Virus record (IMG/VR): IMGVR_UViG_3300031857_000104
Reading direction: 5' to 3' (one strand)
DNA: 20,000 nucleotides
Source of the DNA: an uncultured virus (IMG/VR IMGVR_UViG_3300031857_000104)
Lineage: Duplodnaviria; Heunggongvirae; Uroviricota; Caudoviricetes
The position numbers and the translations under genes are program-made. The notes beneath the pieces were generated by a model. That model was not told where the DNA came from. It made no database searches and was given only the letters and a program-made list of their open reading frames with translations. Positions 11,361 through 14,714 of the stretch are shown piece after piece (position 1 is the stretch's first letter; every line of letters begins with the position of its first letter).

Positions 11361-13778
11361 ATGAAAAATTTTTTGAAAATATCTCAAGAGGAAAAAAAAT
11401 ATATCCTTGAAAAATATTCTTTATTAACTGAAGACGATAAGTATGGTTGCATAAAAGGTGATTGTAAAAATGGGTACGGTGAATTTAGATATGAAAACAC
11501 AAAAAACAAACCTGTTTATTGTGAATATTACAAAGGTAATTATGTAAATGGAAAAAGGGAAGGTCAAGGTACATTAATGTTTTCAAACGGAGATATTTTT
11601 TCAGTTAATTTTAAAAATAACGAAGTAAATGGTCAAGGTATTTATAAATCCAATAACGGTATTGTTTATGATGGAAAATGGAAAGATGTTAATGATGACT
11701 CAATACCATTAGAAACCGATACAGAATTTAAAGTATTTTGGCCCGATAGTTTGGGTGGATGCACATATATTGGTGTTTACACCGACCATGGTATGGATGG
11801 TGAAGGTGTTTTAAAGTTTCCTGACGGAACAAATTATACTGGAACTTTTAAACAAACTGACTTTAGTTCTAAAATTCAATTTGACGGTATTGATTCTAGA
11901 AATTCGTCTTCAATATGGACTGATGATTTAAAAGATTACCATAATAATCCACCTACTGATGAAGAAGAGGTTGTTGATGATGAAGAGGTTGTTGATGATG
12001 GTCCTGTTGAAAACATTTTACAAGTTACAGAAGGATTAAGAAAAAATTGGAAGGGTTGTAAAGTACCGAATGATGATCCTAAATATGACTTTACGGGTCT
12101 TGGCGGAGGTAAAGACTACGGATATTTTACTCAAATGCCTGAACTTGGTTATGCTAAATTTAAAGGCCAAATTGATGGTAAAGAAGTGACTATTGAATAT
12201 GGTTGTTTTGATAAATTTAAAATAGTAAGAGGTAGAGAAACTGGTGATAGGGGTAGTTTTGAGGGTGAGTATTATACTGAAGACACTGAAGGGTTTTTTA
12301 AAGGTGACGAAACTAAAGCAAATAAATTTGCATTAGGTGAGTTAAAAAATTCACCTGAATATGATTTTTATAGTAATACTTGGATATATTTTGGTTATTT
12401 TACTGATGGTAAAATAAACGGTGATAATAGTAAAATACCAGGACTTAAATCAGATAAATCAGAGTATGGGAAAATAACATTTAACGATAATAACACTTAT
12501 TCTGGTGATTTTGTAAACTCCAATATTAATGGTAATGGAACTTTTACTTTTAGTAATGGAATGGTTTTAAGTGGGTTCTTTACTACTAAATCAGAGGCCG
12601 ACGGGGACGTTATTAGTGTAAATCTTACTGAAACATATAAACAAAAATACGGTTTAACAAGAATAGAAGACATTTTTGATTTTAATGAAACATATGACCC
12701 AAATAAAAAACCTAACCCACAAAGTGATACGATAGGAGCAATAAAAGTCTCAACTTTAAAAGGTAAAACATACTATAAAATAAAGTTAGAAAGTAAAATA
12801 ACTGGTAAATCTAAAGAGTTTGAAAGTTTAATTGGTGGCGTTTTTATACGAATTACAAATAAAGAAGATAAAAAGATTTTTTTTGAAACAACTTCTGACG
12901 TAAGTGGTAATTTTGAAATACGAAATATACCTTTTGGTGAATATAATTTAGATTTTCTTAGAGGTGATAAAAAATTTGGTTTTGTTTTTGAAAAAGATGA
13001 TTATAAAATAAGTAAAGATACTCATACAGTTAATGTTAAATTAGCAGGAACTAAACGATTAGTAAAGGATTTAAACCGAGATATAAAAATTTATGATAAA
13101 TCAACAACTAATGAGTACGGTAAAACTCAAACAAGTGATGGTACTGAAACATTTGATATTCTTTCAATGGATGGGGATGAACTTTATGAATACTTAGAAT
13201 CATATTTAAATACAAACCAAAAAGATAGAGAGTCATGGATTCAAGATTTAGTTGCTGGTAGATTTGAAAAAAAATATGGTGAGGTTACGTCAAAAGAAGC
13301 TTGTTTAAGAGAATTTAAAAGTTATGCTGATATCATAAGAAAAATCACTAAAAATGAAATTGATCCTGAAAAAATAAAACAACCCGGAAATGATCTACAA
13401 CCAACAAAAAATTATTTAAAACAATGTTTAAAAACTTATGGTAAAGATATTGTTGATAAAGATGATGTTAAAATAGTTGTAAATCCACCAGGAGAAGCGT
13501 ATGAATTAGGTGTAAGATTGGAAAATAAAATTTATTCAGATATTTATAATAAAACCTCTGATATGGGTATCTACAGTTCAATTAGAAAAGTCCTTAAAGA
13601 ACAAAAAACAACTAATAATATTGAAAATAATATCATTAAAAATAGGTTAAATTTTATTTACGAAAGTTCTGATTATTATGATTTAAAATTTAATCTCTTA
13701 AAAGAATCTAAAGAATTGATAAAAAAAGGTTATAACGAAAATATGGTTAAAAATTACTATAAAAAACTATTAAACTAA
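11361..13778 (+). CDS. MORN-repeat protein with a carboxypeptidase-regulatory-like beta-sandwich domain
   Basis: GCIKGDCKNGYG, YKGNYVNGKREGQGTLMFSNGD and YSGDFVNSNINGNGTFTFSNG are MORN-type. ETTSDVSGNFEIRNIPFGEYNL is CarboxypepD_reg-like. Leader ISQEEKKYILEKYSLLTE. Confidence 0.8.
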   Translation: MKNFLKISQEEKKYILEKYSLLTEDDKYGCIKGDCKNGYGEFRYENTKNKPVYCEYYKGNYVNGKREGQGTLMFSNGDIFSVNFKNNEVNGQGIYKSNNGIVYDGKWKDVNDDSIPLETDTEFKVFWPDSLGGCTYIGVYTDHGMDGEGVLKFPDGTNYTGTFKQTDFSSKIQFDGIDSRNSSSIWTDDLKDYHNNPPTDEEEVVDDEEVVDDGPVENILQVTEGLRKNWKGCKVPNDDPKYDFTGLGGGKDYGYFTQMPELGYAKFKGQIDGKEVTIEYGCFDKFKIVRGRETGDRGSFEGEYYTEDTEGFFKGDETKANKFALGELKNSPEYDFYSNTWIYFGYFTDGKINGDNSKIPGLKSDKSEYGKITFNDNNTYSGDFVNSNINGNGTFTFSNGMVLSGFFTTKSEADGDVISVNLTETYKQKYGLTRIEDIFDFNETYDPNKKPNPQSDTIGAIKVSTLKGKTYYKIKLESKITGKSKEFESLIGGVFIRITNKEDKKIFFETTSDVSGNFEIRNIPFGEYNLDFLRGDKKFGFVFEKDDYKISKDTHTVNVKLAGTKRLVKDLNRDIKIYDKSTTNEYGKTQTSDGTETFDILSMDGDELYEYLESYLNTNQKDRESWIQDLVAGRFEKKYGEVTSKEACLREFKSYADIIRKITKNEIDPEKIKQPGNDLQPTKNYLKQCLKTYGKDIVDKDDVKIVVNPPGEAYELGVRLENKIYSDIYNKTSDMGIYSSIRKVLKEQKTTNNIENNIIKNRLNFIYESSDYYDLKFNLLKESKELIKKGYNENMVKNYYKKLLN
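11964..11999 (+). repeat. 18-nt in-frame tandem duplication (EEVVDD x2)
   Basis: gaagaggttgttgatgat twice, in an acidic linker. Confidence 0.9.
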
Positions 13779-13779
13779 T

Positions 13780-13912
13780 ATCGCAATGCCATCTGCGATT
13801 AATAAGGTGAATGGCTGGATTTTTGAGTAGTTTCTTAAATCCATAAACCTTAAAGAAAGGGAGGTGTTCCAAAATCTAAGAAAGGTGTTCTGAAAAGAAC
13901 ACCTTTTCTTTT
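13780..13912 (+). ncRNA. candidate structured RNA / 3' UTR element carrying a complement to the Bacteroidota 16S rRNA 3' end
   Basis: Stems ATCGCA/TGCGAT, GCCAT/ATGGC, TAAGGT/ACCTTA and TGGATTT/AAATCCA, then AGAAAGGGAGGTGTTCCA, then a terminator. GC-richer than the other gaps. No known family recognised. Confidence 0.45.
13881..13912 (+). terminator. Rho-independent terminator
   Basis: Perfect 11-bp stem AAAGGTGTTCT / AGAACACCTTT with a GAAA tetraloop, followed by TCTTTT. Sits between the internal-protein block and the tail block. Confidence 0.85.
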
Positions 13913-13919
13913 ATAATGG

Positions 13920-13926
13920 TATTTAT
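13920..13926 (+). promoter_or_regulatory. TATTTAT motif, putative late promoter
   Basis: Lies immediately downstream of the terminator and 5 nt before ATG 13932, where a re-initiating promoter would be needed. Confidence 0.6.
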
Positions 13927-13931
13927 GTAAT

Positions 13932-14714
13932 ATGGAATTTAATATCAAAAAAGGATCCACCTTACCATTTATTGAAGTTGCTTACTTAAAAGACGGAAAC
14001 AAAGACTATAATTTTAGTAATACCAATTTAAGTGAGTCAACAATATATTTTTATATGAAAAATATTGATACCGATACGTATAAAATTGCTAAAAGTATTG
14101 CGACATATGATAGTGTTAATAATAAAATATATTACCAATTTACAAAAAAAAACACTTCAGATGTTGGAAGGTATGAAGGAGAATTTAAAGTATATAATGA
14201 ACAAGGGTTAATTGAATTACCTTTAAAAGAAAAAATTTATATAAATGTTTTACCTTCATTTAGTGATTCTAGATTTTGTTGCGGTTCTAATAGAAATATA
14301 GGTCCCGTACCAATACCAACACAAACACCAATACCAACACCAACTCCGACACCTACACCAACATCTACACCAACACCAAGTGTAAATGGGTTCTACTACG
14401 GTAAATTTAATAGTATATCAATAACAAGTGGTGATGTTGTAAGTAATTTAACATTTGTAACAGCAAATAATGCGGTTAATAGTTATGTACCATTTGGTAC
14501 AGGGTTAGGATATGGGTATACAATCATACCAACATTATTTACCCAACCAACAGAATTTATAGATAGTACTGCTGGTTGTACAGGTATTCAAATACCGACA
14601 AACAATATTGGTCAAGTGACAATAAATAATATTAATAATGTTCCTGTAACTTATAACGTTTACAGGACATTCTTTAGGTTCAACGGAACATTAACAAGTT
14701 GGATGTGTGATTAA
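13932..14714 (+). CDS. BppU-like baseplate/tail protein with a Pro-Thr linker
   Basis: N-terminal FNIKKGSTLP...IYYQF...TSDVGRYEGEFKV...LP resembles the BppU N-terminal domain. It is followed by a (PT)n linker and a beta-rich C-terminal domain. Confidence 0.65.
   Translation: MEFNIKKGSTLPFIEVAYLKDGNKDYNFSNTNLSESTIYFYMKNIDTDTYKIAKSIATYDSVNNKIYYQFTKKNTSDVGRYEGEFKVYNEQGLIELPLKEKIYINVLPSFSDSRFCCGSNRNIGPVPIPTQTPIPTPTPTPTPTSTPTPSVNGFYYGKFNSISITSGDVVSNLTFVTANNAVNSYVPFGTGLGYGYTIIPTLFTQPTEFIDSTAGCTGIQIPTNNIGQVTINNINNVPVTYNVYRTFFRFNGTLTSWMCD

Follow-up and report, generated by a model that had tools for sequence, protein, structure and literature searches.

A conserved phage element with an extended Shine-Dalgarno sequence and no start codon: a candidate RNA mimic of the rpsU initiation region of Bacteroidia

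Ribosomes of the Bacteroidia hide their anti-Shine-Dalgarno (ASD) sequence, and to our knowledge the sole known use of that sequence in these bacteria is the autoregulation of ribosomal protein bS21 through one extended Shine-Dalgarno (SD) sequence on rpsU. Many aquatic phages of Bacteroidia hosts encode bS21. In the cry3A mRNA of Bacillus thuringiensis, the STAB-SD, an SD near the 5' end that belongs to no gene, is thought to bind 30S subunits and blocks decay from the 5' end. The extended SD of the rpsU (bS21) mRNA in Flavobacteriales and other Bacteroidia has been the subject of several reports (PMC7797042, PMC9976891, PMC13000453, PMC13000457). In F. johnsoniae, and as a rule in other Flavobacteriales, no gene but rpsU carries an extended SD, and ribosomes that lack bS21 make use of it (PMC9976891). 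The 13-bp SD-ASD helix clashes with bS21, 65% of the replete 70S complexes on rpsU mRNA being without that protein (PMC13000457). McNutt et al. further speculated that phages with bS21 encode products aiding bS21 exchange and that rpsU autoregulation serves as a counter-defence (PMC9976891). Freshwater Bacteroidetes myoviruses that encode bS21 were described by Chen et al. (PMC9723584), the accessible part of whose paper mentions no orphan SD or RNA partner and brings up Shine-Dalgarno sequences only in two background mentions and one reference entry. Outside the Bacteroidia, the alphaproteobacterial small mRNAs rreB and rreR have been described, with rreB given as 165 nt long with a 17-nt SD, strong 30S binding and poor translation (PMC5711450). 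We found no report in the literature of an orphan extended SD in phages. Here we describe such an element; a preliminary description of it had cited the hidden ASD and the extended SD on rpsU as host-side background, and both are in print (PMC9976891, PMC7797042, PMC13000457).

The DNA analysed is a 20,000-nt stretch of an uncultured member of the Caudoviricetes (IMG/VR IMGVR_UViG_3300031857_000104), hereafter the window. Its G+C content is 30%, and its row of plus-strand genes is a phage tail region, with gene matches to tail-fibre and collagen-like proteins (PHROG, Pfam), a peptidoglycan-binding domain and MORN repeats. An ORF inside the virion-gene region (2-499) carries a CHU_C type IX secretion sorting domain (E 5.7e-11), a Bacteroidota-specific signal that points to Bacteroidota. 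The element occupies a 153-nt gap between an 805-aa gene (11361-13778), whose stop codon it directly follows, and a 260-aa gene (13932-14714); every gene nearby lies on the plus strand. As first described, an SD-like box is followed by ATC-TAA and a strong terminator with no ATG between them, and a terminator scan calls the same hairpin (match at 13880-13907), which has the G+C-containing stem and U run of an intrinsic terminator and begins 7 nt after the box. ATG, GTG and TTG are absent at start-codon spacing behind the box, the only GTG (13864) lying within it. The features are collected in Table 1.

Table 1. Features of the element and of the start of the downstream gene (window coordinates)
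Feature	Position	Strand	Composition	Basis or remark
5' domain with hairpin A	13780-13815	+	ATCGCA 13780-13785 / TGCGAT 13794-13799	Two-sided changes in 5 of 6 pairs (7 sequences)
Candidate H-type pseudoknot		+	Hairpin A loop GCCAT 13788-13792 with ATGGC 13811-13815	3' strand just 5' of hairpin B
Hairpin B	13817-13842	+	GGATTT 13817-13822 / AAATCC 13837-13842	Conserved GTAG in loop
Single-stranded linker	13843-13877	+	ATAAACCTTAAAG-box-AAAATCT	Nearly invariant; unpaired in MFE and centroid folds
Box sequence	13854-13871	+	AGAAAGGGAGGTGTTCCA	Read from the window
Extended SD within the box	13854-13870	+	16 bp with 16S tail GGAACACCUCCUUUCU, G13859 bulged	-26.2 kcal/mol; top tail-pairing site
Sequence after the box		+	AAATCTAA directly after AGAAAGGGAGGTGTTCCA; ATC 13874-13876, TAA 13877-13879	
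ATC-TAA	13874-13879	+	Where rpsU leaders have ATG	9 nt after GGAGG
Intrinsic terminator	13878-13913	+	14-bp stem, one bulged U, GAAA loop, T run	Terminator scan; covariation
Terminator arms		+	Left AAGAAAGGTGTTCT 13878-13891; loop GAAA; right AGAACACC-T-TTTCTT 13896-13910; then T run	
TATTTAT motif and ATG (13932) of the 260-aa gene	13920-13934	+	TATTTAT 5 nt before ATG	TATTTAT invariant in alignment A3

Several further observations concern the surroundings. GGAGG occurs 10 times on the plus strand of the window and its complement CCTCC not once, which may reflect avoidance of ASD-like sequence in mRNAs or merely purine skew. A terminator-like hairpin also lies within the 805-aa gene (12333-12358). 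The 260-aa protein contains a Thr/Pro-rich (PTPTPT) linker (14300-14380), and a second such linker is found in the gene upstream of a distant relative of the 260-aa gene (L002 3830-3970). Read in frame past the stop of the 805-aa gene, positions 13776-13802 give YRNAICD. The homologous residues in the relative L001 (3850-3888), FRNAVGG, are coding and form the C-terminus of another upstream gene; in some relatives, therefore, coding sequence reaches into the 5' hairpin of the RNA, and the gene upstream has been exchanged.

The gap very probably specifies a structured plus-strand RNA that ends at the terminator. It folds better than its shuffles (z = -4.2), and in an alignment of seven sequences (A1) 97.3% of the cells in three helices are paired, with 11 pairs changed on both sides, a figure reached by none of 500 shuffles. 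In a broader alignment of 41 distinct sequences (A3), hairpin B and the terminator are paired in 91.3% of cells against 84.1% after shuffling, with a covariation score of 0.267 against 0.143 (none of 500 as high) and only 47-61% pairing in slid controls. Hairpin B has two-sided changes in 7 of its 10 pairs among the 41 sequences, and in 3 of 6 pairs among the seven, where all cells are paired; the terminator stem has them in 4 of 14 pairs, with 97.7% of cells paired (41 sequences). G-U pairs occur in all helices and would be C-A mismatches on the opposite strand, which identifies the plus strand as the RNA strand. For the 5' domain we propose a pseudoknot as a candidate only: a scripted stem-plus-loop-pairing fold was recovered in 36 of 40 relatives, with differing helix sequences and with the 3' strand abutting hairpin B in most, and its shuffle control discriminates weakly (observed 39 of 40; shuffles average 29.6 and reach at most 36). 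MAFFT misregisters hairpin A in L244.

Between these helices the linker is held open and hardly varies. Its columns are invariant in both A1 and A3, the flanks having been preset by the search pattern of the metagenome scan described below; in independent scans, the 10 element-bearing loci retain ATCTAAGAAAGG in all 10 cases and CATAAACCTTAAAG in nine. Rfam at gathering thresholds gave no match. The best match in E-value mode, to the Bacteroides small RNA BTnc060 (RF04184; 26.1 bits, E=0.03, against a threshold of 228.9), was rejected: it is carried by the A-rich linker and the terminator, and the BTnc060 model has no SD core.

The element is present in 10 IMG/VR contigs. The preliminary description had put forward conservation in syntenic relatives as a check, and the element is conserved there: in eight contigs (G001-G004, G406-G409) it stands upstream of a homologue of the downstream gene; two more diverged contigs (G416, G419) also bear it. 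A metagenome scan, anchored on the flanks only with the box left free (and thus blind to relatives with altered flanks), returned 45 loci in 39 distinct versions. Box and terminator are always adjacent in the relatives seen, and ATC-TAA is present in every element-bearing one. The element is absent near more distant relatives of the downstream gene (L002, L263, L265), which makes it a feature of one clade, and a distant-mode search of the INPHARED cultured phages with a 3.3-kb query gave no match. Scans of viral contigs with short words were of little use, two 14-mer scans returning mostly chance matches or ordinary SDs of other phages and an 18-mer scan returning six matches, two of them chance. 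In four relative contigs (230 kb in total, both strands), the element is single-copy and is the strongest tail-pairing site in each.

The preliminary description had given a 16S tail typical of Bacteroidota and had proposed that the box matches it except for one extra G. The 16S 3' ends taken from 26 sampled Bacteroidia genomes show that this tail is real: 12 end in GGCTGGAACACCTCCTTTCT, whereas eight carry GGAATACC, two GGACCACC, one GGATCACC and three other variants, the host tail types contrasted being GGAACACC and GGAAUACC. With the 16-nt tail taken from L306 for duplex calculations, the box pairs with all 16 tail bases and leaves one G bulged, at -26.2 kcal/mol. This lies outside the background, both in the window, where 24-nt segments on the two strands average -4.0 kcal/mol (sd 2.5) and the runner-up site, inside a gene, reaches -19.5, and in 20 Markov-shuffled 20-kb sequences, whose minima range from -15.7 to -21.3 kcal/mol. 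It also exceeds the duplexes of three sampled rpsU leaders with their own tails (-17.0, -21.0 and -21.8 kcal/mol). One observation counts against a tail-pairing function: the match requires the bulged G, and none of the sampled host tails has the extra C that would abolish it; the exact 18-mer has five matches in the sampled genome contigs, all in coding sequence.

Measured against the rpsU-type extended SD, the element thus exceeds the complementarity of at least 13 nt to the 16S tail (16 bp with the L306 tail), but where a start codon about 8-11 nt downstream and an rpsU ORF would be expected it has only ATC-TAA and no ORF. A strong SD precedes rpsU in 5 of 30 sampled Bacteroidia genes, with 9-11 nt from GGAGG to ATG, and the distance from GGAGG to ATC in the phage element and its relatives is 8-9 nt. 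A BLAST search of the element against 401 Bacteroidia genomes gave chance-level matches only, the best (E 3.6e-5) being a coding-sequence match already met with the 18-mer, which rules out a recent copy of a host leader. The claim that no gene start in the window has an SD also holds: none of the 15 starts has one upstream, and the best tail duplex among them is -8.7 kcal/mol.

The flank-anchored scan left the box free to vary. The core GG[A/G]GGTGTTC never varies in the 45 loci. Among the 14 paired positions free in the search pattern, four vary by transition, three of them from A to G opposite U and one from C to T opposite G, and each of the four retains a wobble pair with the tail, whereas none of the eight positions at which a transition would break the pair varies (P = 15/1001 = 0.015, a value that depends on four variable columns in related sequences). 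A single transversion, A to T in 5 of 41 sequences, breaks a distal pair, and the tail duplexes of all box variants lie between -20.3 and -26.2 kcal/mol. This wobble-only variation is consistent with selection to preserve pairing with a constant external partner. The right arm of the terminator was considered as that partner and rejected, as it varies freely (GGAATACC, GAACACC, GGGACACC, GGATACC, GAGTCACC) and in step with the left arm, without any accompanying change in the box. The constraint thus indicates a partner that is invariant and lies outside the element, for which the 16S tail is the obvious choice. Conservation is as high in the flanks as in the box itself, so function may need more than SD pairing. 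The arm variant GGAATACC, found in many relatives (L274 3018-3035), is identical to the tail variant of Chitinophagales-type 16S (GGAAUACCUCC), probably by coincidence.

How the RNA would be produced is suggested by a recurrent motif. ATATTTAT occurs in the window nine times on the plus strand, six of these copies 4-45 nt before a gene start, and twice on the minus strand; in the four relative contigs, 44 of its 99 occurrences lie at most 25 nt upstream of an ORF start. On the plus strand of the window, (A)TATTTAT stands at 1445, 7826, 11348, 13920, 15302, 16462 and 19555, in each case 0-45 nt before a gene start. (A)TATTTAT is probably a phage late promoter or initiation signal, and we take it to be reminiscent of the T4 late promoter. 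The copy at 13920 reads as a separate expression signal for the 260-aa gene. In 13 of 40 relatives, a copy of ATATTTAT also directly precedes the 5' domain, at a distance of 55-74 nt from the linker, and there the element resembles a small RNA gene, about 135 nt long and under the signal used by the late genes. The window has no ATATTTAT close by, so an RNA here would form the 3'-terminal part of the 805-aa gene transcript. Three small lake metatranscriptomes gave no reads on this stretch, a result that weighs neither for nor against transcription. Of the two possibilities raised initially, a late transcript end or a small RNA, the small RNA fits the relatives with the promoter-like motif better, and the mRNA 3' end fits them less well.

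Additionally, the element keeps company with phage-encoded bS21. Nine of the 10 element-bearing IMG/VR contigs encode it. Co-occurrence with phage rpsU, which the preliminary description had suggested examining, was borne out in the set identified without using bS21, where Pfam Ribosomal_S21 (PF01165) is found in seven of eight contigs; bS21 was seen neither in the eighth, G003, a fragment estimated to be 32% complete, nor in the window, likewise a fragment. It was found in none of six related contigs lacking the element, all of them fragments and three of them possibly unrelated phages sharing only the leader motif. A search starting from bS21 recovered the element in 2 of 12 contigs, 20 kb from bS21, and most of the other 10 contigs end short of the expected place. 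The contigs behind all these counts are relatives, and the counts are not independent. The phage bS21 gene itself has an A-rich leader without an SD and with TATTTAT in front, and lies 20-35 kb from the element. The phages match in kind the freshwater bS21 myoviruses of PMC9723584: contigs estimated at 13-43% completeness and 39-128 kb in length, bS21 on the strand opposite to the structural genes, and an origin in lake metagenomes.

We judge it somewhat more probable than not that the RNA functions through pairing with the 16S tail. The best single explanation, to which we give about an even chance, is that the RNA imitates the initiation region of host rpsU without its start codon and engages the 16S tail, either as a decoy or to evict bS21. 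Positions 13780-13913 would encode a structured non-coding plus-strand RNA of about 135 nt, in which two 5' helices and the terminator hairpin would hold out a 35-nt single strand whose centre is a start-less copy of the extended SD that Bacteroidia hosts reserve for rpsU. From transcription and 30S binding to every downstream consequence, what follows is what we infer from sequence and comparison. The RNA would pair with the 3' tail of host 16S rRNA and, with no start codon at the P-site position, the resulting RNA-30S complex would be a dead end. It would thereby compete with host rpsU mRNA for 30S subunits with a free tail and cut the resupply of host bS21, and it may also pull the tail from its pocket and displace bS21, favouring the loading of phage bS21. 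Against this reading, normal Bacteroidia ribosomes hide the tail, which would limit binding to a minority of subunits if the RNA did not displace the tail on its own. A decoy or bS21-exchange role as such is possible rather than probable. Its fullest version, in which the phage RNA acts as a bS21-swapping factor that frees 30S subunits for phage bS21, outcompetes rpsU mRNA and blocks the autoregulatory resupply of host bS21, is unlikely; lacking a start codon, the RNA would then release the 30S, which would be reloaded with phage bS21.

Other readings of the same features account for part of them. The box might be the sensor of an attenuator, in which a 30S or 70S anchored there would cover about 15 nt past the P site, including the 5' arm of the terminator (13878-13891), so that the hairpin would be blocked, transcription would proceed into the tail-fibre genes, and read-through would report the number of free-tail subunits. 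The geometry is suitable, since the left arm begins 4 nt after the ATC, the box and the terminator are never found apart, and the box resembles a duplicate of that arm, AAGAAAGG(GAGG)TGTTC. We consider such a device improbable all the same, because a conserved TATTTAT 5 nt ahead of its ATG gives the downstream gene a signal of its own, because 30S binding would have to keep pace with RNA polymerase over about 30 nt of transcription, and because 13 of 40 relatives have the unit as what seems to be a small RNA gene in its own right. With leader-peptide attenuators the element has in common that a ribosome beside the terminator arm could decide termination; it differs in having neither a leader ORF nor an antiterminator alternative, given that the alternative pairing of box and right arm also makes a hairpin before the U run.

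Equally improbable, in our estimate, is an RNA 3'-end or stability module whose hairpins and terminator protect the upstream mRNA, the SD likeness being either a by-product of a duplicated purine-rich arm or a STAB-SD-like stabiliser. The position after the stop codon of a long gene suits this reading, as does the partial direct repeat of the terminator left arm in the box, and the STAB-SD offers a precedent for an SD that starts no gene. However, the four inserted nucleotides that make the SD core never change, whereas the arm supposed to be their source does, the variation in the box is wobble-compatible with the tail, and the complementarity spans the full 16 nt of the tail.

Slightly further down the scale we place a non-ribosomal partner, be it a host or phage RNA with a GGAACACCUCC-like sequence or a protein. 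Conservation of the flanks CATAAACCTTAAAG and ATCTAAGAAAGG on a par with the box, together with the elaborate fold of the 5' domain, speaks for such a partner, but the plus strand of the whole window has no CCTCC, and the 16S tail is the only known invariant host partner of such length.

A real initiation site, either a minimal start-stop (AUC-UAA) or another tiny non-AUG ORF translated by bS21-less ribosomes, is more doubtful still. The ATC lies 8-9 nt past GGAGG, close to the 9-11 nt of the ATG in sampled rpsU leaders, and ATC-TAA is kept in all element-bearing relatives seen; yet AUC is a very poor start codon, no frame is conserved (TAA at 13914-13916 in the window closes the frame that is open in L001 and L245, and indels separate the relatives), and ATC-TAA overlaps the base of the terminator stem, an overlap that could account for its conservation. 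Two related candidates were rejected: extension of the downstream protein at its N terminus, for which the frame is open in L001 and L245, is prevented by the same TAA in the window and by frame-shifting indels elsewhere, and service of the downstream ATG by the box through compaction of the hairpin would leave 32 nt even after its removal. A minus-strand RNA mimicking the 16S tail itself, raised in the preliminary description on account of the resemblance of the reverse complement to the tail and compatible with a terminator that scores on that strand too, is barely credible, given the C-A mismatches to which the G-U pairs of all three helices would turn, the plus-strand orientation of all nearby genes and a promoter-like motif on the plus strand. 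A minus-strand 41-aa ORF (13747-13872) was likewise rejected, as it diverges exactly at the covarying hairpins and is shorter in L244.

If the bS21-swapping reading were true, no RNA before this one would have been known to change the protein composition of a ribosome. A conserved, start-less and even longer SD in phages with bS21 is a concrete candidate for the bS21-exchange product speculated about in PMC9976891. The RNA is short enough for use in the F. johnsoniae ribosome system, for which wild-type, bS21-truncated and ASD-ablated ribosomes exist. Should it merely stabilise an mRNA end, it would still be an uncatalogued, well-defined phage RNA family.

Like the rpsU extended SD, the phage box can pair along almost all of the 16S tail (over 13 bp in F. 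johnsoniae and 16 bp in the phage) and is embedded in A/U-rich flanks; it occurs once per genome, with a similar P-site spacing, in a lineage whose other genes have no SDs. It differs in lacking a start codon and ORF, in being followed at once by a terminator, in being phage-encoded and far from an SD-less phage bS21 gene, and in forming a longer and stronger duplex (-26.2 against -17 to -22 kcal/mol for the three sampled leaders). With the STAB-SD it shares an SD that starts no gene and for which action by 30S binding is proposed. The STAB-SD, however, is a Bacillota element in the 5' UTR of a long mRNA, whereas the phage box stands just before a terminator (7 nt on) in an RNA of about 135 nt or in a 3' UTR, and a separate signal serves the next gene. 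Outside the Bacteroidia, the nearest analogue to have been characterised is rreB, a small RNA with a long SD (PMC5711450). The SD complementarity of at least 16 nt that marks rreB and rreR is present in the phage element too, without the conserved small ORF that follows it there, since the phage element has no start codon or conserved frame; according to the same source, rreB encodes a 14-aa peptide from a GTG start, is chromosomal and meets host ribosomes with an exposed ASD (PMC5711450), whereas the phage RNA has no start codon at all.
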